Below are positions 4,421 through 21,304 of a stretch of DNA of 64,000 nucleotides, piece after piece. The position numbers and the translations under genes were made by a program. The notes beneath the pieces were generated by a model. It was not told where the DNA came from and searched no databases. It saw nothing but the letters and a program-made list of their open reading frames with translations. Origin of the DNA: an uncultured virus (IMG/VR IMGVR_UViG_3300031555_006527) (Duplodnaviria; Heunggongvirae; Uroviricota; Caudoviricetes). How positions within the stretch are numbered: the stretch's first letter is position 1; the number at the start of each line of letters is the position of its first letter. The stretch lies in the IMG/VR virus record IMGVR_UViG_3300031555_006527. One strand, given 5' to 3'.

Positions 4421-6099
4421 GTAAGAATGCAGGTAATCCCAGATTAGTTACCAGCCAGCAATATATTCGTTTATTTTTACCATTAACAAGAGTTCCATTC
4501 TTCAAGGGAAAATTAAGAGTATTAAAGCAATTATATCAAGGCATCTGTCCATATGAAGACAGAGAAGCAGAGCAGATGGCATTAAACTCTTTAATTGCCG
4601 CCATTTTAGGCTGTATAGGTTCTTTTTTCATATTCTTTTTAATGAACCTAGTATTTTTTGGCGTAACTCCCTATGTAGTTGTAGCAAGTGTAGCAGCAGC
4701 CTACTACATATTTAATGAAGTTTTGTTGTATCGACAGAATAAGCTTACGAATCAGCTTAACACAGAATTATCTTCGTTTTTCCTGAATGTATCCCATTAC
4801 TATCAAAGTGAGCGTTCTATTTTAACGGCATTAGAAATGGGTGCTACCTCTTTAAGTAGAGAAATTCAGACGACAGCAAGATTTTTAGAAGAGATTCTTA
4901 CGGCTGATAATGCTGAAGAACAGATTTACAATTATGTTACAGATGCAGACAAAAACTTATATTTAAAACTGTTTTTACAGCAATGCTACGAATGTTTTGA
5001 GCATGGAGATGCCTATATTAACGGAGTATCCTCATTTTGTGAAACGTTAGAGACATTTCGAGTAGACATGCTTCGGTCTAAAATTGACCGCCAGAAACAC
5101 AATGCCAGATTACAAGGATTGTCTTTTGTACTCTGGGTTCCGGCATTAGCCATGGGTGTTATCAAAAAGTTTGGTCTATCACTCATGGAAGATATGGTTC
5201 TTTTTTATACGGAATATGGTTTGTTTGTAGAGTTATTAACACTTGCCAGTGCCTTTATCTTATATCAGGCATTAAACAGAGCTAAATACCGTCATTTAAA
5301 GACCATCACCATAAAAGAATGGTATTACAAGGCACAAGACGCATTACAATGGTTTGAAGATACAAATCAGGGGTGGTTTGTAAAACAATTAAAAGCAGTT
5401 GCCTGTAATGCTCCTCCTAGTGTTTGTTATACCAAAATGACATTAGATGCAATTCTTGGAATGTTTGCCGGATTATTTTTAGTAGTGATTGGAGCAATTC
5501 AAAATCACACTACGGTTCATTCCAATCAATTACTTCTAATTCCTTTATGTGGGCTAGTAGCGTTAGCATTCCCAATTCAGGTACTCTTTTTAAAATATCA
5601 ATTTAAAAAGGACCGAGAAAATGAAGTTGACTCTTTCCAATTGTTAATGATTTCGGAACGTCACAGTAAAACGATTACATTAGCAGACTTATTATCTAAG
5701 ATGGAAAGACTTGCAAATTATTATCGTTTACCGATTGGTGAATGTTTAAACATGCTATCTTACGACCAAACAAAAGCACTCTCTGGCTTAAAAGCTGTTG
5801 CCGAACGAGAAGGGGATTTAACATTTAGTAATATTGTAGATATGTTAATTTCCATTGACCGTTTAGGTATTGAACAATCTTTCCAAGAACTCAAAATGAG
5901 TCGTCAATTAGGAATTGAAGAACGGCACATTATGTCAGATATTAAGGCAGACAATCAAGGAAACTTATTAGAATTTTCCTCTTCCCTGCCTGCAATTTTA
6001 GCCTTTGGATTATACGTTATTATTCCGTTTGTATATTATACATTTGTCGATATGGAAGACGTATTAGGCGTATTAAGCTCTATGGACACAATGTTTTAA
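4417..6099 (+). CDS. TadB/TadC-like fused inner-membrane platform protein
   Basis: Multiple TM segments in two repeated blocks; overlaps the TadA-like stop codon. Confidence 0.65.
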   Translation: MSKNAGNPRLVTSQQYIRLFLPLTRVPFFKGKLRVLKQLYQGICPYEDREAEQMALNSLIAAILGCIGSFFIFFLMNLVFFGVTPYVVVASVAAAYYIFNEVLLYRQNKLTNQLNTELSSFFLNVSHYYQSERSILTALEMGATSLSREIQTTARFLEEILTADNAEEQIYNYVTDADKNLYLKLFLQQCYECFEHGDAYINGVSSFCETLETFRVDMLRSKIDRQKHNARLQGLSFVLWVPALAMGVIKKFGLSLMEDMVLFYTEYGLFVELLTLASAFILYQALNRAKYRHLKTITIKEWYYKAQDALQWFEDTNQGWFVKQLKAVACNAPPSVCYTKMTLDAILGMFAGLFLVVIGAIQNHTTVHSNQLLLIPLCGLVALAFPIQVLFLKYQFKKDRENEVDSFQLLMISERHSKTITLADLLSKMERLANYYRLPIGECLNMLSYDQTKALSGLKAVAEREGDLTFSNIVDMLISIDRLGIEQSFQELKMSRQLGIEERHIMSDIKADNQGNLLEFSSSLPAILAFGLYVIIPFVYYTFVDMEDVLGVLSSMDTMF

Positions 6100-6114
6100 A
6101 GAAAGGAGAACGCA

Positions 6115-8053: not shown

Positions 8054-8392
8054 ATGTCGACCAAAATCGAATCCTTTTTTCTAATTGTTGTAATTTTACT
8101 ATTATGTATTATTACTCCATTACAAATGAAACAAAGCCGAACAGAATTTATAATGCAGAATGCATTAGAATACGAAGCTGACCATTTCGCATGGGAGCTT
8201 CAAACGTACAAACAAATCGACGTACCATTATTACCAGACAAAACCATGGAATTCTATTGTTATAACGACAGAATGGAATTAGTAGACATTATTTCTGCAA
8301 GTACTACCATAGGGCCATTAGATTTTAATCCATATTTTTGCGTTATCTTTGAGTACAAAGGAATAAAGAAAGGAGTATGTCTTGAACAGTGA
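8054..8392 (+). CDS. Minor pilin-like single-TM protein
   Basis: N-terminal TM, operon context. Confidence 0.5.
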   Translation: MSTKIESFFLIVVILLLCIITPLQMKQSRTEFIMQNALEYEADHFAWELQTYKQIDVPLLPDKTMEFYCYNDRMELVDIISASTTIGPLDFNPYFCVIFEYKGIKKGVCLEQ

Positions 8393-8753: not shown

Positions 8754-9397
8754 TGAATCGACATCATTTAGGTATTTTATTTTCTGCAATAGCGATATTA
8801 TTATTGTCTTCCATTTATTTAAGATGGCTTTACATTACAGAACAACAGCAGGCAGATAGAACGACAGAAAGTTCCTTAAATTTTGCAATATCCTCCTCTA
8901 TTGGAAAATTAAATATCAGTTATGGTAGTGCAAACGACTATTATACATTATCTGACACTTTTTTCAATAGTATTATGTTAATGCAAGGAAAACGAGACAT
9001 ATTAGAAGGACGTACTGCAATCGAAGACTACTATCCATATGTTCCTGTCTTTTTATGTTTAGAAGAACGATACTATCATATAGGTAGTTATAATGGAACT
9101 TCTTATGAATGGAGTGAAGCTCAATATTATCCGAATCACGCATTACTTTCAGATTTAGATACCGACCTTGCTCTTACAACAATTGAAAACAAAATCAATG
9201 AAATGCTAGTAAATTATCATAATGATAGAGGTCTTCCAGACACTACCTATATTCTTCCGGATTATTTTATGAGAAATATTTCAGCACCAACAATATTAGT
9301 AGTCTTAGAAAATTTCCCTACAACCTTATATGGTCATTATTATTCCGGAGTATTCCATGGTGGTGGAAGTTTAACTCCAATTGAAAGGACACCATAA
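8753..9397 (+). CDS. Minor pilin-like single-TM protein
   Basis: N-terminal TM, translationally coupled (TAATG). Confidence 0.5.
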   Translation: MNRHHLGILFSAIAILLLSSIYLRWLYITEQQQADRTTESSLNFAISSSIGKLNISYGSANDYYTLSDTFFNSIMLMQGKRDILEGRTAIEDYYPYVPVFLCLEERYYHIGSYNGTSYEWSEAQYYPNHALLSDLDTDLALTTIENKINEMLVNYHNDRGLPDTTYILPDYFMRNISAPTILVVLENFPTTLYGHYYSGVFHGGGSLTPIERTP

Positions 9398-9398
9398 C

Positions 9399-9908
9399 AT
9401 GAATCAAGAAAAGATTTTATGTTTAGATTTATCCACAAGGAATACCGGATATGCAACATATCTTAATGGTATTTACCAAGATTCCGGAAGTTTAGAGCAA
9501 AAAGAGACGGATGGAACCTTAAGAGCCTATCATATTTTACATCGAATTGAAGAAGAGATAGAAAGATTTCATCCAACTCTTTTAGTCGTTGAAAAACTTC
9601 CGCCAATGTTTCATTCCGGACAAGAAGTATTGATTTATCTTCACGGTGGATTAAAATTTTTAGCCATACAGAAAGGAATTGAATTACAAGCTACTTTACT
9701 TCCGATGCAATGGCGTAAAATATTAGGCTTTAATCAATCGAAAACAGAAAATCGTACAAAATTCATAAAACAACAATCCATTGCCTGTGCAAGTAAGATT
9801 GTTGGAAAAATAATTACTGATGATAATGAAGCAGATGCTATTTGTTTAGGAACTGCATTTTTATTAGAACAAGAGCAAAAAGAAATAGAAAAGCTTTCTT
9901 ACAAATAA
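9399..9908 (+). CDS. RuvC-like Holliday junction resolvase
   Basis: ILCLDLSTRNTGYA, VVE and DDNEADAICLG catalytic motifs. Confidence 0.8.
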   Translation: MNQEKILCLDLSTRNTGYATYLNGIYQDSGSLEQKETDGTLRAYHILHRIEEEIERFHPTLLVVEKLPPMFHSGQEVLIYLHGGLKFLAIQKGIELQATLLPMQWRKILGFNQSKTENRTKFIKQQSIACASKIVGKIITDDNEADAICLGTAFLLEQEQKEIEKLSYK

Positions 9909-9956
9909 AAAACAAAAAAAAATAGAAGTTACGAAAAAGAAACCCGGAGGCACTTT

Positions 9957-10358
9957 ATGTTAAACCAAGTAAAAGAGACAGAAAAGTTAAAATATGAACC
10001 ACCAGAAATAACGATTACTCCTCTGTCTACTTTTTCAGAAAATATAAAAAGAGAATTACAACGTTCTGGAAAATCAACTTATTGGCTTGCCAGAAAAAGT
10101 GGTGTAAGTCAAAGTTTAATCAGTAATTATTTAAACGGGAAAACAGAGCCAAGTTTATCAAAAGCTTTAGCGATTGCGAACGCTTTACGAATTCCATTAT
10201 CTCAACTAACAGATGATGAAATTTTTAAAAAGAAGCTATTACCAGAAACTTCAAGAGATATAGAATTTGAGCAAGAAGTATTACAAAGTTGTTCTTCTAC
10301 CACATTATTACAAGAAGTAGATAGACGACTAAACCATTCTAAGAAAAAGACAGTTTAA
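9957..10358 (+). CDS. XRE-family HTH transcriptional regulator
   Basis: LARKSGVSQSLISNYLNGKTEPSL..ALAIANAL HTH. Confidence 0.85.
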   Translation: MLNQVKETEKLKYEPPEITITPLSTFSENIKRELQRSGKSTYWLARKSGVSQSLISNYLNGKTEPSLSKALAIANALRIPLSQLTDDEIFKKKLLPETSRDIEFEQEVLQSCSSTTLLQEVDRRLNHSKKKTV

Positions 10359-10365
10359 CATTGTT

Positions 10366-10490
10366 CGCTTTTTCGTTCAACGGCAGGACTATCTTAATTC
10401 AAAACAGCTAACATCACTCCTTTCTTTTTATTATAAAAAATCAGCAATAAACGAATTAAGATAACAGAGGTTCGACTCCTCTAAGAGCGA
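10366..10490 (+). ncRNA. tRNA-like RNA with extended anticodon stem and about 52-nt loop containing an anti-SD tract
   Basis: Acceptor cgctttt/aagagcg; D-arm gttc/ggac; 10-bp stem atcttaattc/gaattaagat; T-arm agagg-ttcgact-cctct; loop has catcactcctttc. Confidence 0.75.
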
Positions 10491-10778
10491 TTCCACACAT
10501 CTCTTGCAGGCATTGAAAAATGCTTGGTGTGGGACATTGAGTAGGGTGATGTGTCACTCAGCTCCCATGAAAACATGGGCAATTTCTGGCAAATATTAAA
10601 GAAACGTAGCTTATCCTGAAGGATATTTGTCACGCTTGCGTAGGATAAAAAAATGACTCACAGCAGCAATTTTGAGTTTCGTCTACGGCGTAAGCGCTCC
10701 TTTGTATTTTTTCTTAAGTGGAGGCATTCAGTTGCTTCCACTTCTTTTTACTATAAAACACAGAAAGGAATAAAGAAT

Positions 10779-10901
10779 ATGACCACTTATGACATTATGA
10801 CAGCAACAAATCAAGAAACACAAGAATATACAAACATTCATCTATTAAAATATTGGGCTATTTTCTTAAGTATAGGAATGTTTTTAGCAATTTTACTATA
10901 A
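10779..10901 (+). CDS. Small membrane protein (40 aa)
   Basis: GAAAGGA RBS; C-terminal hydrophobic segment. Confidence 0.45.
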   Translation: MTTYDIMTATNQETQEYTNIHLLKYWAIFLSIGMFLAILL

Positions 10902-10903
10902 TT

Positions 10904-10933
10904 CCGCCAACTTAAACCAAATTATAGCTAATA
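10904..10933 (+). promoter_or_regulatory. Promoter-like motif, copy 2
   Basis: ccgccaacttaaaccaaattatagctaata. Confidence 0.75.
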
Positions 10934-10975
10934 CTTGTAACTATTATCATTCTTATTTTACAAAGGAGCATACTC

Positions 10976-11680
10976 ATGGGATTTATCATTGCTTGTGGAG
11001 ATAAATATCTTAAAAAAGAAGAAAATAACTCTTTTACTCCGGTGAATAACCAAACACTTGCATATTGTTTTGAAACAAAGCAGGCGGCAAAAAATGCCAT
11101 GTCTGTTTTACCAAAACTTTATAAAAACAAAGGTTGCAAAGTAATTGAATATCTTACGGAAGTGCAAGAAGTTTCTACTCATTACGAACAATTAAAAAAC
11201 AATATGTCCTTATTTAAAAGAAACGAAGCCATTGAAGGTCCCCTTACAGAGATTTCTCTAGAAGATATTTACGAGCAAATGAAGCAGCTTTCCAACACGC
11301 TTGCGTTTTTAACACAGAATAAAGGATATATGGAATGTCTACTTAAATATACAGATTTAGCCACAATAGACTTATTACACCAAATTGAGTTACAAAGTTT
11401 TGGTTCTGTCCAAGGTTATCGGTTAATGAAACAGTTCAAAGAATTACGTCAAACCAGACGAAAATATAAGGACTTATTACAGTTAACCCTTATGATTGAC
11501 CAATTCAATTTAGAAGCATTTTCAAATGGTCAAATCACAGAACGAATCACCAATATTGAAAATCGTACCTATCAAGAAAAGGTATTAGAAGGTATCTTTG
11601 ACAAATCCGAAGATTTAGAGCAATTAGTCAAAGAAAAAGAAGAACTTTCAACGACAACAGGAGCCCAAAATGAAGAATAA
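10976..11680 (+). CDS. Hypothetical protein (coiled-coil)
   Basis: ORF with AAGGAG RBS downstream of the motif. Confidence 0.7.
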   Translation: MGFIIACGDKYLKKEENNSFTPVNNQTLAYCFETKQAAKNAMSVLPKLYKNKGCKVIEYLTEVQEVSTHYEQLKNNMSLFKRNEAIEGPLTEISLEDIYEQMKQLSNTLAFLTQNKGYMECLLKYTDLATIDLLHQIELQSFGSVQGYRLMKQFKELRQTRRKYKDLLQLTLMIDQFNLEAFSNGQITERITNIENRTYQEKVLEGIFDKSEDLEQLVKEKEELSTTTGAQNEE

Positions 11681-13110: not shown

Positions 13111-13253
13111 TTATTCTCTTTAGGATATCACCTCGTCCTAAGGAGAAGGTCAATAGAACTTTCTTGCCAAAGAAAACAATCCTCCTAGACAGGGAAAGAA
13201 CCACTTCCCAATATAGGAAGAATCGGTTCTTGAATAAAACAAGAGCCGAATCT

Positions 13254-13336
13254 GCAAGTATCGCCTAGTGGTAGGGCACATGACTTTTAATCATGCGAAG
13301 TATTCTTCATCCCGGGTTCGAATCCCGGTACTTGCA
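13254..13336 (+). tRNA. tRNA-Lys(TTT) with long variable arm
   Basis: gcaagta/tacttgc acceptor; catga-ctTTTaa-tcatg; variable arm gaag-tatt-cttc; T-arm ccggg-ttcgaat-cccgg. Confidence 0.85.
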
Positions 13337-13453
13337 TTGAGTCCTTGTGACTCACTATTGGACAATACCACCCATATAAGTACCTCATACTGTAATACTT
13401 CTTTATAATGTAGTTGCGTTGTTAAATTTTGTGGCAATATTGTCCAGTTTCTT

Positions 13454-13526
13454 TGGGGTGTGGTGAAGCGGTTAACACACGGGCCTTTGACTCCCGCATA
13501 CGAGGGTTCAATTCCCTCCACCCTAG
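13454..13526 (+). tRNA. tRNA-Gln(TTG)
   Basis: tggggtg/cacccta acceptor; ctTTGac loop; T-arm gaggg-ttcaatt-ccctc. Confidence 0.85.
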
Positions 13527-13551
13527 CTAGAATTTACAAATAAGACAGGAG

Positions 13552-14049
13552 TTGTTTTTGTTTAAGACTTTAATCTATGATGGTATAGAATATCCCCAAT
13601 TTTTAATTAGTGAGTCTGGAGAAATTCTCAATACAACTACAGACGCTTATTTAAAGCCATATCTACATCCAACAGGATATTATTACATATCTTTACCTAT
13701 GGGGAAAAGAGGTTTAGTAAAAACACTTAGGCTTCATAAAGCTCTTGCCGAAACTTTTATTCCAAATCCACACAATTATCCATTAGTTCATCACAAAGAT
13801 GAAGACAAAAGTAATTATAATTTATCTAACTTAGAATGGACTACTGTAAAAGATAATGTTAATAAGCATTTGGAATATGTTTCAAGAACAAATCCGCTGT
13901 GTAATAACAGAAAATTAACATCAGATGATGTGCGATATATTCGCAATCATAAAGGGGTTATTAGTCAACGAAATTTGGCGACTATGTTTCAGTGTTCAAA
14001 AACAACCATAAGAAATGTCCAACAAGGCGTTTGTTATCAACATGTTTGA
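13552..14049 (+). CDS. HNH homing endonuclease (NUMOD4/HNH_3-like, C-terminal HTH)
   Basis: RLHKALAETFIPNP.NYP.VHHKDEDKSNY..SNLEWTT..DN motif. Confidence 0.85.
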   Translation: MFLFKTLIYDGIEYPQFLISESGEILNTTTDAYLKPYLHPTGYYYISLPMGKRGLVKTLRLHKALAETFIPNPHNYPLVHHKDEDKSNYNLSNLEWTTVKDNVNKHLEYVSRTNPLCNNRKLTSDDVRYIRNHKGVISQRNLATMFQCSKTTIRNVQQGVCYQHV

Positions 14050-14085
14050 CTGCTGCAGACGCAGGTTCGAATCCTGCTACCCCAG
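14045..14085 (+). pseudogene. 3' half of a tRNA-Gln (anticodon to acceptor)
   Basis: tTTGactgctg..gcagg-ttcgaat-cctgc-tacccca-g; tacccca can pair with tggggtg; no 5' half upstream. Confidence 0.7.
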
Positions 14086-14268
14086 CTTCGGAATGGAGCA
14101 GAACTTCATTCTGGTTAAAATTCCTTCCCACGGAATGAAATACGTCTATACATGGAGCTTTTTACCTATCTTTCTCTCCATGAAAAAACTTAGTAGTCTT
14201 CATCAAACTACTTAGATGTCTGAAGTTTTGTTAAATAACTTAAGGCGTTTTATAGGACATTTTTTTTG

Positions 14269-15279: not shown

Positions 15280-15865
15280 AATGGATGAATGTATGGATTG
15301 ATTTTAGACACAACTACCGCAAATAGGAGTGTTTAACTTACCTCCAAAGAATATCTGAAAACGAAAGACAGGTATTCCGAACAGGAGTTGGTTTCGCAAA
15401 AGCCGACAGGGTTGCGATGAATGGGCGGTACTCAAAAGGTACTGATGTTCAAACGTACACCTCGTAATCCAAAAAGAAAATAATATATTACACACTCATA
15501 CTGTGAAGAGAATTCAAAATAGGTGAATTTATTGTTCATAAAACTATGAATATACTTTTTTTCAAGCAAAAGTGTGTACGACTTCAAAGGGAAAAACAAC
15601 TTATCTATCTGTAATATGGTGGCTTCTTGAATCCGCAAGAGACAAGAAGAAGTAGTACAAGTAGATGCAACTCTAACAGACTGCAATCTGTGAATCTCGC
15701 AAGGAAGAATGTGTCAAACGGAAACTTATGAAGCTTTGGAGTAAGAGTTTGCTACTTTTTGCAAAAGTAGTGTTGTTCTTAACTACAGCTTAATCGGCTG
15801 TGTGACTAATCCTCTCCAATGGGGATAGAAGTTAAGATGTGGCGTCAAGGTCTCAGCGCAAACAG
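15280..15865 (+). ncRNA. Large ornate ncRNA, ROOL-like (GOLLD not excluded); boundaries approximate
   Basis: About 600 nt of hairpin-dense sequence with no + strand ORF, inside a tRNA cluster. Motifs ggtactcaaaaggtact, aagcaaaagtgt, tctcgcaagga and 3' tctcagc are recalled from this RNA class (not searched). Confidence 0.55.
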
Positions 15866-16092: not shown

Positions 16093-16133
16093 CTTTGGCT
16101 GTCAAAGCCAATATAATTTAACATAGTTACTTG

Positions 16134-16496
16134 TGATGCTTACAGCAAAACTAAAATGCAAAATTTGAATTAACTATTCTAAAACATATTATTCAATTAG
16201 AGGCGTCCTGCTTCTTGCAATCAAACAAAAAAGCATCATGTAAAAAGTAAACTAACAATCTTTAGGGAAACATACAGCAAATCTACTACATATTCAAATG
16301 GGTTGAAGAAAAAAAGTTTCCTGTATAAAGATAACAACCGAACAAAAACCGATAGAGTTTTTTATTGGCAGCGTACATGTACAAAGCCAAATTTGAGCTA
16401 TTGTCAAAAAATTCTTAATGTAAAACATACAGCAATTCTGCTACTTGAAAAAGAAAAATTTTATGAAAAATCTTCAAAAAAAAAGCGTTTCATGTA
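16134..16496 (+). repeat. Three tandem stem-TACAGCAA...stem'-TGTA RNA motifs
   Basis: 16134-16242, 16266-16325 and 16421-16496; the stems differ in sequence but stay complementary. Confidence 0.75.
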
Positions 16497-17161: not shown

Positions 17162-17629
17162 ATGGCAGAGAGTAAATCTAAGTTATACAAAAGAAAAACA
17201 GTAGAAAAAAAATTGAATGAACTATTGGAAAGAATCTCGCAGCTTAATGAAGAAATATCACATCCGGAGTTTACGTGTTTTGTAGACGAAATGGTTGCTT
17301 TTGGTTCATATATAAACACAGATAATGAAAAAATACATGACCTTGATATAGCAATTAGGTTAAAGCTTAAACCAAGATATAATAATAATATAGGCCTCGC
17401 ATCAAGAGAAGCTCAACAACGAGCACCCGAAAATATTGATTTTTTACGTAAACTTTGCTGGTCCCAAGAAGAAGTTTATCAATATTTAAAAAACAGGTGT
17501 GGCATATATTCTTTTCATTTGTTAGACGAAGAGCGTAAAATTGTAGAAAGTGACATACATAAAGTACTCGTAAAGAATGGAAAACTTACGGGTCAATATT
17601 TAAAAAAATCGCGCGTAAAACGCAAATAA
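17162..17629 (+). CDS. Minimal nucleotidyltransferase (Pol-beta superfamily)
   Basis: AFGSY......IHDLDIAI (GS..DxD) motif. Confidence 0.75.
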   Translation: MAESKSKLYKRKTVEKKLNELLERISQLNEEISHPEFTCFVDEMVAFGSYINTDNEKIHDLDIAIRLKLKPRYNNNIGLASREAQQRAPENIDFLRKLCWSQEEVYQYLKNRCGIYSFHLLDEERKIVESDIHKVLVKNGKLTGQYLKKSRVKRK

Positions 17630-17639
17630 AAAAACATTT

Positions 17640-18024
17640 GGGCCTGTCCCGGTTTCGATGGGGCATACAAAGGAAAATAAGCACGTAGAGGATGGTGGAC
17701 ACCTCTTAAATCCGACACCAAAGAATAAATGCTAACGCATACAGACCAGTAGCTCAGGCTGCCTAATAGGTAAGTAGACTACACCCTTATCTGAAATGGT
17801 AAGGGATAAGCTCTCCGGATAACACCGCTATACTCCGGAGGGTTCAAAAATAGCGGTTGAGATACGGTAAAAGTTCACCCAGAAAGCCATATCAAAATAA
17901 AATCTGGCTGTGCGATGTCGATGGGTTTGCTTATTTAAACATCGGCTGGTACCAAAAATAAGATAAACGTGTAGAAAGTTTTATGGCGGTGTTCCAGACA
18001 GGAGTTCGACTCTCCTCAGGTCCA
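17640..18024 (+). ncRNA. ssrA: tmRNA; tag (A)ANAYRPVAQAA encoded at 17731-17766
   Basis: gggcctg/caggtcc acceptor with G3-U70 and A73; ggtttcga 5' motif; T-arm aggag-ttcgact-ctcct; ATAAAT-GCT resume context; tag ends in AA-stop. Confidence 0.92.
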
Positions 18025-18064
18025 CTCATTATCTCATCCTATATTATTTTGAATTAAGGTATTT

Positions 18065-18292: not shown

Positions 18293-18723
18293 TAATTTTT
18301 ATGGTTCTCTGTAAACAAATTATTTAGGAACAGAGTGGTGGGCTATTGGTTAGAAACCAGTACATATTGCAACAATAGTCTTTGACTGCACATCAAGCAT
18401 GTTGCACTGGCAGAGGAGTCTGCGAAAAGGTATCCTATCCCGGAGAGGTGCAGCTAGGGAGTAAGGAAGGAAGAGGCTCCTCTGAACAGAACAAACAAAT
18501 ATTTTGCTGAATTTCTATAAAATAAAATCTTTAGCTAAGTGTGCATAAGCTTTAGAAAGTAATTTGACATAGACGGCAGGTCATGACGATGACTAGAATA
18601 CTACAAATTTAAAGTTAGTTTCAATGCCGATAGCTCATCACTATAATTCAGCATTTGTTCTATAACAGAACAAGCAATAAGTTAATAAAAAACCCCTACT
18701 TATGTAGGGACTAATCCATCTTG

Positions 18724-18795
18724 TGATTCTTACAGCAAATCTTAAAACAGAACTGTAAATCGCAAATTTTACAAAATTATTTTACGAATCATGTA
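18724..18795 (+). promoter_or_regulatory. stem-TACAGCAA...stem'-TGTA motif abutting the RBS of the DUF2828 gene
   Basis: tgattc-ttacagcaa...gaatca-tgta-aggagg-N8-ATG. Confidence 0.7.
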
Positions 18796-18809: not shown

Positions 18810-20285
18810 ATGAGTTTACGTGAAGCTATTCACAACGAAGCAAAGTGGACAGAAACATGGAATGGTTGTGATACCTTAAAGACCACAGATTCCACCTGTC
18901 TAGACTTATTTGGTAGAGCCGGAGCAATGAGACAGGCTACTACAGAAGAAAAGAACCTGTTATTTAGCAGAGCTTTTCAGGAAAACAAGGATATTGCCGT
19001 AAAGTTATTATTCTATACCCGAGACATTCGTGGCGGATATGGAGAAAGAGATACCTTTATGGATATGTTCCGTCATTTAGCTGAAATCAATCCAGCATCT
19101 GTAGAGAAGAACCTTTGGGCAGTATTAGAATTTGGTCGTGCCAAGGACTTATATTGTTTGATTGGAACTCCTGCAGAATCTGCAATGTGGCAGTTTATGA
19201 AGGCTCAGTTTGAGTTAGACTTAGAGAACTTAGCAAAGGGAAATAGTATTTCTTTATTGGCTAAGTGGATTGCTACACCGGACTCTGGTTCTGAAGAAAC
19301 AAAGAAGCTTGGTAAGTTAACTGCCAAGAAGTTAGGTTATTCCTTCAAGACCATGTCTGACTATAAAAAGAAGCTCCGTTCTCTTCGTAAGTATTTAGAT
19401 TTACCGGAAGCAAAGATGTGTGCTGGTAAGTGGGACGAGATTGAGTACAGCAAGTGTGCATCTAAGTTTTTACTTAAGAACCGTAAGGCTTTTGTAAAGC
19501 ATGATGAAGCTCGTTGGACAGAATTCAATCAGAAGGTAGAAACTGGTGAAGAGAAGATGAACATGGGTACTGTTACTCCATGTGACATTATTCATCAGGT
19601 AAATACCAACTATACCAGAGACCTTGAAACCATGTGGAAGTCTCTTCCGGATGTATGTAAGGGAAATGCTTTAGTCATGTGTGACACTTCCGGTTCTATG
19701 AGCTGGGATAAGTCTGGAGGTATGTATCCAATTGAAGTCGCTACAGCTCTAGCAATTTATTTTGCTCAGAGAAACAAGGGTGACTTAAAGGATGTATTCA
19801 TGACTTTCAGCACTCATCCGGAATATGTAGAGCTTAACGGTGCTACATTAAAGGATAATCTTAATATCGTAAAGGAAGCTGATTGGGATGGTTCTACCGA
19901 CCTTGAAGCGGCTTTTGAGTTATTACTTAAGACCTGTATTAAGGGTAAGGTAACTCCAGAAGAAATGCCAGATGCTATTGTCATTGTATCTGATATGCAG
20001 ATTAACTGTGTAGAGGGTGTTGACCGTGAGCAGAACATGACATTTTACGATGTTATGAAAAAGCGTTATAACGAAGCAGGATATCATCTTCCACAGGTAG
20101 TATTCTGGAATGTCAACGCAAAGAATCCAACCTTCCATGCTGCTAAGAGTGCAAGAGGCGTATCTATGGTAAGTGGATATAGTCCAAACATCTTTAAGCA
20201 GGTAATGGAGAACATTGGAACCACACCTTACGAGCTCATGATGGCAGTAGTCAACAGTGAGCGTTACGAAAAGGTAGTAGCATAA
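18810..20285 (+). CDS. DUF2828-family / TROVE(Ro60)-like protein with C-terminal vWA domain
   Basis: LLFYTRDIRGGYGER; SLLAKW; MIDAS DTSGSM; W.GSTDLEAAF; IVSDMQ; VFWNV; VSGYSP. Confidence 0.85.
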   Translation: MSLREAIHNEAKWTETWNGCDTLKTTDSTCLDLFGRAGAMRQATTEEKNLLFSRAFQENKDIAVKLLFYTRDIRGGYGERDTFMDMFRHLAEINPASVEKNLWAVLEFGRAKDLYCLIGTPAESAMWQFMKAQFELDLENLAKGNSISLLAKWIATPDSGSEETKKLGKLTAKKLGYSFKTMSDYKKKLRSLRKYLDLPEAKMCAGKWDEIEYSKCASKFLLKNRKAFVKHDEARWTEFNQKVETGEEKMNMGTVTPCDIIHQVNTNYTRDLETMWKSLPDVCKGNALVMCDTSGSMSWDKSGGMYPIEVATALAIYFAQRNKGDLKDVFMTFSTHPEYVELNGATLKDNLNIVKEADWDGSTDLEAAFELLLKTCIKGKVTPEEMPDAIVIVSDMQINCVEGVDREQNMTFYDVMKKRYNEAGYHLPQVVFWNVNAKNPTFHAAKSARGVSMVSGYSPNIFKQVMENIGTTPYELMMAVVNSERYEKVVA

Positions 20286-20350: not shown

Positions 20351-20477
20351 AGAGAAGTAGCTCAGATGGGAGAGCATCAGCCCTTATAAAAATGTTTCAT
20401 ATGTACGTGTGAAACTAACAGCAAGGAAAAAATTAAGTCCAAGCTGGTTGTCGTCGGTTCGAGCCCGACCTTCTCTA
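20351..20477 (+). ncRNA. tRNA-like RNA with about 60-nt insert in the anticodon loop carrying a permuted ACAGCAA motif
   Basis: agagaag/cttctct; gctc/gagc D-arm; tcagc/gctgg; gtcgg-ttcgagc-ccgac; insert gtttca..tgaaac-taacagcaa. Confidence 0.8.
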
Positions 20478-20795
20478 CTAGGGATATGGCAATTAGTCAT
20501 AAATCAATATGCAATAAGTCCATAACAGAGCCCCCTAATGTTTCCTGTACAAAGCGGCCTCCATCTCACACACCAATCCGCAATAGGGAAACAAACAGCA
20601 ATTTGTCTATTAGATTGGATGAGATGATTCTCTTATTAAAATATCGTCAACGTAAGAGTTTCATCGCTTGTGGGCTTCGGCAATGCAAGCACTCTTCGAA
20701 ACTGGTCCGATATGCCAATCGAAGTAAGTAAAAGGTAAGGAGTGAGGAGTCTCTTCATCCATTTTTAAACTTCTCATTCCTCATCTTTACTATTT

Positions 20796-20978: not shown

Positions 20979-21067
20979 TTTGTAGGGTTATTCTCAAATT
21001 TGCTTTTCTCTACAAAATGTTATCTTCCTTTCTAAAGATAGGGCTACGAAAATGGTCCTATCTATCT

Positions 21068-21112
21068 GCTTCCTAATTGGCATAAAAAAGGGTTCGATTC
21101 CCTTAGGAAGCA
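21068..21112 (+). ncRNA. Minihelix-like element (acceptor stem plus T-arm only)
   Basis: gcttcct/aggaagc-a with aaggg-ttcgatt-ccctt and a 13-nt connector. Confidence 0.6.
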
Positions 21113-21190: not shown

Positions 21191-21304
21191 ATGGGAGTTC
21201 ACGGTTGGTAAGTGCATGGACTCATTCTCCATGGGAATCTGTGATTAGAAATAATCATATGGTCAGGATTCATTATATGAGAGGTTCGAATCCTCTCTCC
21301 CGTA
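21191..21304 (+). ncRNA. tRNA-like RNA, CAT in anticodon position, oversized variable region
   Basis: atgggag/ctcccgt; cac/gtg D-arm; catgga-ctCATtc-tccatg; about 45-nt structured variable region; agagg-ttcgaat-cctct. Confidence 0.65.

Follow-up and report, generated by a model that had tools for sequence, protein, structure and literature searches.

A tRNA-shaped gene of 125 nt (10366-10490, + strand; supported by Rfam RF00005, fold prediction and ARAGORN -i -ps95) occurs within a 64-kb stretch of DNA, here called the window, that looks like part of a large phage genome. The gene may encode an unspliced, tRNA-shaped non-coding RNA of about 125 nt that displays a CU-rich loop, a reading that we favor tentatively and to which we assign a probability of roughly 0.35. 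By this account, 53 nt would have been inserted into the anticodon loop of a tRNA gene, and host tRNA end-processing enzymes may trim and stabilize the resulting RNA via its intact acceptor, D and T arms. The anticodon arm, as judged from sequence and fold prediction, would become an 11-bp stalk presenting an unfolded, AU-rich loop of 52 nt. The CU run, the one feature of note in this loop, is complementary to the purine-rich ribosome-binding sites of phage messages and could pair with those of both phage and host, with a possible effect on translation. The tRNA body would serve as the carrier for a working loop, and a second tRNA gene of the window (20351-20477) appears to be built alike, with a Ro60-binding module in place of the CU-rich loop.

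The real-looking ORFs of at least 100 aa in the window are all on the + strand, its GC content is approximately 33%, and its RNA genes include a cluster of tRNAs and a tmRNA, along with a GOLLD-like RNA that scores below threshold. The tRNA-shaped gene is isolated from the tRNA cluster by 2.8 kb and follows a gene for a helix-turn-helix (HTH) protein (9957-10358, +; HTH_3 match), the stop codon of which is 8 nt upstream. A promoter and terminator scan around the gene returned nothing useful (5 promoters compared with 6.5 in shuffled sequences). As the preliminary description of this DNA had stated, the acceptor, D and T arms are intact. The acceptor stem (10366-10372 with 10483-10489, +; sequence and fold) contains seven pairs, one of them G-U, and is followed by a discriminator A (10490, +) with no encoded CCA. 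The D arm (10375-10389, +) combines a 4-bp stem (GTTC/GGAC) with the loop AACGGCA, including its GG, and the T arm (10466-10482, +; AGAGG/TTCGACT/CCTCT) has a 5-bp stem; sequence, Rfam and fold agree on both arms, and the conserved bases of the T and D loops are kept. All four cloverleaf helices are intact, with six further pairs lengthening the anticodon stem into an unbroken helix of 11 bp (10390-10400 with 10453-10463, +; sequence, fold and exact inverted repeat) that closes a loop of 52 nt (10401-10452). The extended helix and its loop had been recognized previously, though the stem was given as 10 bp. In the register of Rfam and ARAGORN, the anticodon stem is placed at 10392-10396 (+) and is preceded by two linker bases rather than one. 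The hinge is non-standard, with either two bases between the D and anticodon stems or, in the other register, a 3-nt variable loop, both of which are unusual for a decoding tRNA. RNAfold returns the same cloverleaf (-23.3 kcal/mol, z -3.07; one of 200 shuffles folds as well) and predicts that the AU-rich 52-nt loop is almost wholly unpaired.

Scores for the gene as a tRNA are marginal. Rfam RF00005 matches it at 30.9 bits, compared with a gathering score of 29 and with 47-68.5 for the other eight tRNA matches of the window; the alignment spans model positions 1-71 with a 57-nt insertion in the anticodon loop, and its E-value of 3.3e-4 refers to the 1.2 kb searched (9800-11000). A whole-window Rfam run with fast filters missed the gene. 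ARAGORN, one of the tools with which an earlier proposal was to be checked, does not call it by default or with introns allowed at the default threshold, but does report a tRNA(UCA) (tca) of 74 nt with a 53-nt intron (10401-10453) when introns are allowed and the threshold is relaxed (-ps95 to -ps70). Compared with a canonical tRNA, the gene reaches the cloverleaf score but lacks, as encoded, the 7-nt anticodon loop and the single linker base. A tRNA-Glu isotype was considered and dropped, given that there was no clear nearest isotype among 56 ARAGORN tRNAs and annotated phage tRNAs.

The anticodon loop is interrupted and not, as had been proposed, replaced. The loop heptamer AUUCAAA (10397-10403, +; sequence, Rfam and ARAGORN) is kept on the 5′ side, with U33 at 10398, UCA at 10399-10401 and A37, and bases one to four of the heptamer are paired to GAAU (10453-10456). 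Within the bounds set by ARAGORN, the insert is 53 nt (10401-10453, +). It opens with a run of A and so the junction can slide from 35/36 to 37/38, leaving the product unchanged. Its removal, the outcome by which the carrier proposal was originally meant to be challenged, yields a normal 7-nt loop (AUUCAAU), though on paper only. Archaeal and eukaryotic pre-tRNA introns are found at position 37/38 and form an anticodon-intron helix, with a bulge-helix-bulge (two 3-nt bulges with a 4-bp helix between them) at the splice sites. The insert is similar in its 37/38-compatible position and its pairing with the anticodon, but differs in that the predicted fold contains no bulge-helix-bulge, the helix being unbroken over 11 bp, and that no tRNA-splicing endonuclease was detected among the 86 window ORFs screened against Pfam; it does not qualify as an intron of this type. 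The same screen found no RNA ligase or RNase III; it spans the 64-kb window of a phage genome of at least approximately 165 kb. To our knowledge, tRNA-splicing endonuclease is not known from bacteria.

Group I introns occupy the anticodon loops of bacterial and phage tRNA genes, i.e. the same gene site, but have a catalytic core of about 200 nt or more. The insert was correctly described as far too short for such an intron, and neither its size nor covariance models place it in this group: a search of 9800-11000 against Rfam (E<=10) returned the tRNA and two chance-level matches elsewhere, with no intron, ribozyme or YrlA family. A suppressor tRNA(UCA) is reportedly carried by the stop-codon-recoded phages of Borges et al. 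The present gene is comparable in that UCA would be its anticodon after removal of the insert on paper, and in that it belongs to a large gut phage with many tRNAs. However, TGA serves as a stop in the window, where no recoded genes are apparent: the 78 window ORFs of at least 100 aa end in TAA (58), TGA (10) or TAG (10), and reading TGA as Trp (code 4) gave no credible new ORFs at 40-44.5 kb. Over the 64-kb window, codon use is not that expected alongside a recoded-phage suppressor. Uninterrupted tRNA(UCA) genes with the loop ATTCAAT account for two of the 56 distinct ARAGORN tRNAs of the fetched loci. Such uninterrupted genes occur around G001-G004 (IMG/VR gut phages), alongside insert-bearing tRNAs and the Ro-like gene.

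The CU-rich run of the loop, catcactcctttcttttt (10412-10429, +), resembles the 3′ tail of 16S rRNA and is the complement of the usual ribosome-binding site of the phage, AAAGAAAGGAG. Within it, catcactcctttct is located at 10412-10425, exactly as first reported, and the fold prediction leaves the run single-stranded. The only copy of ATCACTCCTTTCT in the window is inside the 52-nt loop, with three matches at up to two mismatches (3.11 expected). On the + strand of the 64 kb, CTCCTTT is present five times and its sense counterpart AAAGGAG 21 times, while CTCCTTTC is confined to this gene. At five copies of CTCCTTT per 64 kb, the chance of encountering one in 52 nt is approximately 0.4%, before allowing for post-hoc noticing; the weight of the anti-Shine-Dalgarno likeness is lowered because it was noticed after the event. 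One C of the 16S core is also missing from the run. Complementarity to the usual ribosome-binding site is supported by duplex energies against 108 window start regions, with a mean of -10.3 compared with -8.2 ± 0.76 for shuffled loops and none of 100 shuffles as low. Thus the gene has, like antisense RNAs, an exposed sequence complementary to ribosome-binding sites, as judged from fold and duplex energies. Target prediction, suggested earlier as a check, did not single out a message, given that 25 of 100 shuffles do as well as the best duplex (-19.2, with the site preceding 8382). The complementarity is real but generic. When the insert is compared with the window, it best matches ordinary ribosome-binding sites in reverse complement (e.g. 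8365-8376 and 6098-6108).

A 16-mer of the 16S tail is present in five of 31 genomes of the bacterial family with a related Ro-like gene (reversed control: 0), counted as matches anywhere in those genomes irrespective of placement in 16S genes; two metagenome-assembled genomes with related Ro-like genes lack a 16S gene. Among viral sequences, 52 loci have ACTCCTTTC 30-55 nt before a T loop, and by eye none is built like 10366-10490. A 9-mer common to both inserts of the window, TTATAAAAA, was rejected as a sign of homology, being composed of A/T only and frequent in the window. Two metagenome contigs (L114 and L120) contain a tRNA-like gene that shares its D arm with 10366-10490 and has a 42-nt insert in the anticodon arm with CUGAUGAG.

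The phage also encodes a putative Ro60-like protein. The gene at 18810-20285 (+) specifies a DUF2828/DUF7788 protein (phrog_850, 'RNA-binding protein') with a predicted Ro60 fold: its AlphaFold model has a pLDDT of 89.3, and its best PDB match by Foldseek is Ro60 (1yvr; E 3e-9, TM 0.60/0.57), with Deinococcus Rsr and the Ro60 of Thermus phage phiLo (PMC12135203) among further top matches. An identical protein is encoded on a contig of 164,574 bp. Homologues span 693 GenBank phage records and many host groups, and depositors have named homologues 'Ro-like RNA binding protein'. A DUF2828/phrog_850 gene is directly beside an insert-bearing tRNA in eight of nine contexts (the window, L001, L002, G001-G004 and L157), the ninth being a 39%-complete fragment (G005). 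Across 13 contexts, the motif CAGC[AG]A on the strand of the Ro-like gene has a density of 2.38 per kb at distances of up to 700 nt from the gene, compared with 0.66 further off and 0.32 inside it (antisense control: 4, 23 and 11 sites, respectively).

A position-weight matrix for the Ro-associated motif, derived from 38 sites outside the window, gives scores of 16.9-17.4 to the best four sites of the window (20596, 18733, 16143 and 16275) and 10.0 to the site in 20351-20477. The two CAGC sites of 10366-10490 score -1.9 and -0.6 (ranks 843 and 568). These are CAGCUA, just 3′ of the 5′ strand of the stalk, and CAGCAA, just 5′ of its 3′ strand. The latter (10442-10447, +; score -1.9) is preceded by a weak hairpin of A and U only (10425-10440), and its likeness to the Ro motif is restricted to the hexamer; WCAGCAAW is common in the window, with 27 copies against 13.3 expected. 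Around the best four sites, units comprising a stem, UACAGCAAA, an AU-rich loop, a second stem and GUAAA were observed at 16131-16240, 16258-16335, 18722-18795 and approximately 20580-20620 (all +). From their sequence, these four are candidate Y-RNA-like genes, which the Rfam YrlA model misses in the window. Sub-threshold YrlA matches occur beside the homologous gene in Enterococcus phage EFDG1 and Mycobacterium phage MAckerman. Unannotated gaps by the Ro-like genes of Listeria phage LMTA-34 (L211, 2084-2480), EFDG1 (L210, 1940-2330) and MAckerman (L213, 3920-4140) contain tandem CAGCAA units together with sub-threshold YrlA matches (34-45 bits); in LMTA-34 the tandem units show the stem, CAGCAA and AU-rich loop layout, a ROOL-like RNA (88.5 bits) is upstream and an annotated 'tRNA splicing ligase' is encoded 1.3 kb downstream.

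The second insert-bearing tRNA (20351-20477, +; 47 bits with Rfam) contains a 56-nt insert and is read as Trp(CCA) by ARAGORN -i or as Gly(UCC) manually. The two genes were previously thought to be independent examples of one design, a claim that does not stand: 20351-20477 is devoid of an anti-Shine-Dalgarno run and is a member of another family, which is conserved and linked to a Ro60-like gene. Two human-gut phage fragments, reached via a neighboring protein, contain similar tRNAs of 121-127 nt, the inserts of which share a hairpin followed by ACAGCAA. A scan of IMG/VR for this pattern yielded at least 107 loci in at least 69 distinct contexts; among the matches listed, most inserts interrupt tRNA genes for Val, Gly, Pro or Asn, on the 5′ side of the anticodon but not at one constant position. 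For Val, the insert can be fixed at 29/30, because two anticodon-stem pairs co-change (GTA...TAC versus ATG...CAT). The hairpin covaries across the family (24 cells changed on both sides, compared with 8.7 in shuffles and none of 500 as high), indicating a structured insert, in contrast to the predicted unpaired loop of 10366-10490. Covariance model R1, based on 21 of the 30 distinct non-window cores (hairpin apex CAUGUUNGUG, then ACAGCAA), has its top window match at 20391-20427 (17.8 bits, E 0.013), and 10366-10490 is absent from its 35 window matches at E<=10. The predicted insert-free junction of the Val-tRNA family has no match in IMG/VR, and there is therefore no pair of alleles with and without the insert for this family. 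Phages of Firmicutes, Actinobacteria, Proteobacteria and Campylobacter all have instances of the hairpin-ACAGCAA module next to Ro60-like genes. The 20351-20477 gene probably encodes a full tRNA with a Ro60-binding module inserted, which would constitute a re-wired Ro60/Y-RNA pairing.

No relative of the 10366-10490 locus was recovered from the databases searched. Blastn of 9900-11000 against GenBank phages gave nothing; the 125-nt element matched 41 GenBank phage records at chance level (E<=10), none over at least 80% of the query; and PLSDB plasmids contained no relative. In IMG/VR, neither a 24-mer nor an 18-mer from the T arm had a match, a pattern of the D-arm 12-mer, a gap and the T-arm 11-mer found 11 loci in JGI metagenomes, none related, and the neighboring proteins (10976-11680 and 9381-9908) had no close relative in IMG/VR. 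Six faecal DNA runs contain 0.84-0.94 of the sampled words of the window, and three bovine-gut RNA runs contain small shares; the faecal runs come from six studies dated to the same year, which may have been a single campaign, and the window may itself derive from one of these runs. A 221-nt contig from an RNA library (X7, depth 2.2) is collinear with 10253-10475 with the insert in place, differing by seven substitutions and two gaps. This shows that a relative, approximately 96% identical over this region, keeps the insert and that an unspliced form exists, though the contig may be DNA carryover in the RNA library or a precursor. In the RNA runs, neither 10366-10490 nor 20351-20477 is bridged by a joint in any contig, and two of the three runs have near-zero depth at 10366-10490; the missing joints count neither way, because contigs cannot show absence and seldom capture tRNAs. 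A joint from 20375 to 20450 in contig X1, with 20 other letters between, was rejected as a splice and represents another tRNA.

Several explanations can account for these observations. The reading as a carrier that remains unspliced is consistent with the intact helices and the unbroken stalk with its six extra pairs, with the abnormal linker or variable loop, and with the marginal Rfam score and the relaxed threshold needed by ARAGORN. It also accommodates an essentially unpaired loop, unlike the structured insert of the 20351-20477 family, and a CU run that has no second copy in the window and outperforms all 100 shuffles in pairing with start regions. The window shows neither a need for a UGA reader nor splicing enzymes among its screened ORFs, it provides a precedent in 20351-20477, the insert of which is a conserved Ro60-linked module and not an obvious intron, and the X7 contig retains the insert. 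Against this reading are the lack of relatives in GenBank phages, PLSDB, IMG/VR and JGI metagenomes, the ambiguous origin of the low-depth contig, the absence of a specific target, the imperfect and post-hoc 16S likeness, the lack of a similarly built locus among the 52 viral ACTCCTTTC loci, the partial coverage of the genome by the enzyme screen, and the clean 7-nt loop left by removal of 53 nt, as expected of an intervening sequence. A more specific version, in which a tRNA-stabilized mimic of the 16S tail, left unspliced and one of several such carriers next to 20351-20477 with its Ro60-binding module, would compete for Shine-Dalgarno sites or soak up a factor acting on the 16S tail and thereby retune translation, is improbable. 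It is possible, if doubtful, that the gene instead encodes an interrupted, UGA-reading tRNA of the opal suppressor type, from which a 53-nt intervening sequence at or near 37/38 is removed; cutting and re-ligation by proteins would leave a 74-nt tRNA with the loop AUUCAAU, and this removal could tie UGA read-through to a particular stage of infection. The intron-tolerant ARAGORN call, the retention of U33 and A37, and the pairing between the anticodon and the last bases of the insert, a feature shared with eukaryotic pre-tRNAs, all point in this direction, as do the two uninterrupted tRNA(UCA) genes with the ATTCAAT loop and the short, unexplained tRNA introns published for Lak megaphages (PMC6784885). 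However, 53 nt cannot hold a self-splicing core and no Rfam intron family was matched, the predicted fold lacks a bulge-helix-bulge, no ligase or endonuclease is among the screened window ORFs, TGA ends 10 of 78 ORFs in a window free of recoding signs, the linker or variable loop is abnormal, and RNA contigs contain no joint across the insert, though such contigs seldom capture tRNAs.

Alternatively, the gene may be a young pseudogene, a tRNA killed by insertion, with its 16S likeness stemming from a stray AT-rich reverse complement of a ribosome-binding site. We consider this unlikely. The gene is alone, 2.8 kb from the tRNA cluster, no relatives were found in GenBank phages, IMG/VR or JGI metagenomes, its scores with Rfam and ARAGORN are marginal, the insert best matches the reverse complements of ordinary ribosome-binding sites, and pseudo-tRNAs are listed in phage records (e.g. 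the 'tRNA-OTHER' of phage wV8). Yet none of the helices has decayed, the six extra pairs among them, the T and D loops retain their conserved bases, and the approximately 96% identical relative retains the insert (seven substitutions and two gaps in 221 nt). It is very improbable that the gene encodes a second Y-RNA-like partner of the 18810-20285 protein, with the stalk and the CAGC motifs at its mouth as the binding site. The phage does encode a Ro60-like protein (pLDDT 89.3; 1yvr, E 3e-9, TM 0.60), RNAs beside such genes share a layout of stem, CAGCAA and AU-rich loop, and CAGCUA and CAGCAA flank the mouth of the stalk. Nevertheless, the gene is missing from the 35 matches of the module covariance model (E<=10), a list topped by 20351-20477; its matrix scores (-1.9/-0.6) compare poorly with those of the four sites near the Ro-like gene (16.9-17.4); it has no match to the Rfam YrlA model (RF02553) at E<=10; it is 8.3 kb from the Ro-like gene; and WCAGCAAW is common in the window. 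The remaining probability falls to other explanations.

Both insert-bearing phage tRNA genes and tRNA-shaped phage RNAs are already known, and 10366-10490 is an orphan variant among them. Stable RNAs C and D of phage T4 are encoded in a tRNA cluster and have tRNA-like ends, but do not decode; 10366-10490 would resemble them in the tRNA-like ends and body of a stable RNA, but is outside the cluster. Engineered 'tRNA scaffolds', in which a tRNA body displays RNA inserts, are likewise stable and non-decoding. Lak megaphages contain 'enigmatic' short introns in tRNA genes that are conserved between genomes (Devoto et al. 2019, PMC6784885). As described, these are similar to 10366-10490 in being short, non-group-I inserts of the anticodon region seen only by intron-tolerant finders, but are conserved between genomes, whereas the present insert has no detectable relative. 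Besides this report, no published description of the 10366-10490 element or the hairpin-ACAGCAA family was found (subscription journals were outside coverage). YrlA RNAs are Y RNA-like tRNA mimics encoded beside the Ro60 genes of bacteria and phages (Chen et al. 2014, PMC4201824). They resemble the proposed RNA of 10366-10490 as tRNA-shaped non-coding RNAs of genomes that encode a Ro60-like protein, with a non-tRNA module at the anticodon end; the present gene differs in that it fails the motif and model tests, is away from the Ro-like gene and ends at an acceptor stem, and the YrlA comparison fits 20351-20477 far better.

If the insert is removed, 10366-10490 would offer another handle on bacterial and phage tRNA splicing and on the gating of a stop-codon-reading tRNA; we know of no protein-based tRNA splicing in bacteria or phages. 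If the insert stays, the phage would use a tRNA body as the carrier for a working loop, an idea that gains weight because 20351-20477 is a full tRNA with a conserved module recurring beside Ro60-like genes. As a single case for which no conservation was seen, 10366-10490 merits moderate weight for now.

Other RNA features of the window are recorded here as minor observations. The tRNA-Lys(UUU) gene (13253-13337, +) is 85 nt long and has, unusually for a lysine tRNA, a variable arm of 14 nt. An HNH endonuclease gene (13552-14049, +) is located between tRNA-Gln and a stray tRNA 3′ fragment (14060-14077) in the region 13454-14090, and two RNA runs include contigs in which 13499 is connected to 14063 through five other letters, as if from relatives without the HNH insert. 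The GOLLD-like RNA (15409-15859, +) scores 76 bits (E 1e-18) against a gathering score of 150, and the summed contig depth of the three bovine-gut RNA runs peaks at 14.9-15.8 kb (up to 11,857), far above the rest of the window, with relatives contributing a large part. An ORF for a Pol-beta-type nucleotidyltransferase (17162-17629, +) is directly 5′ of the tmRNA (17640-18027, +; tag ANAYRPVAQAA). The region 21019-21112 (+) contains a hairpin (TATCTT / CCTTTCTA / AAGATA) that has six stem bases and CCUUUCU in common with the 10366-10490 gene, followed by a second stable hairpin and a 45-nt mini tRNA-like element (25.1 bits) reduced to acceptor and T arm; the preliminary description may have had this region in mind as the first example of its scaffold design. 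At approximately 21191-21297 (+), there is a possible tRNA-like element with a variable arm of roughly 45 nt that is called by no tool, and its T arm (21280-21296) is identical to that of 10366-10490 at 16 of 17 bases.
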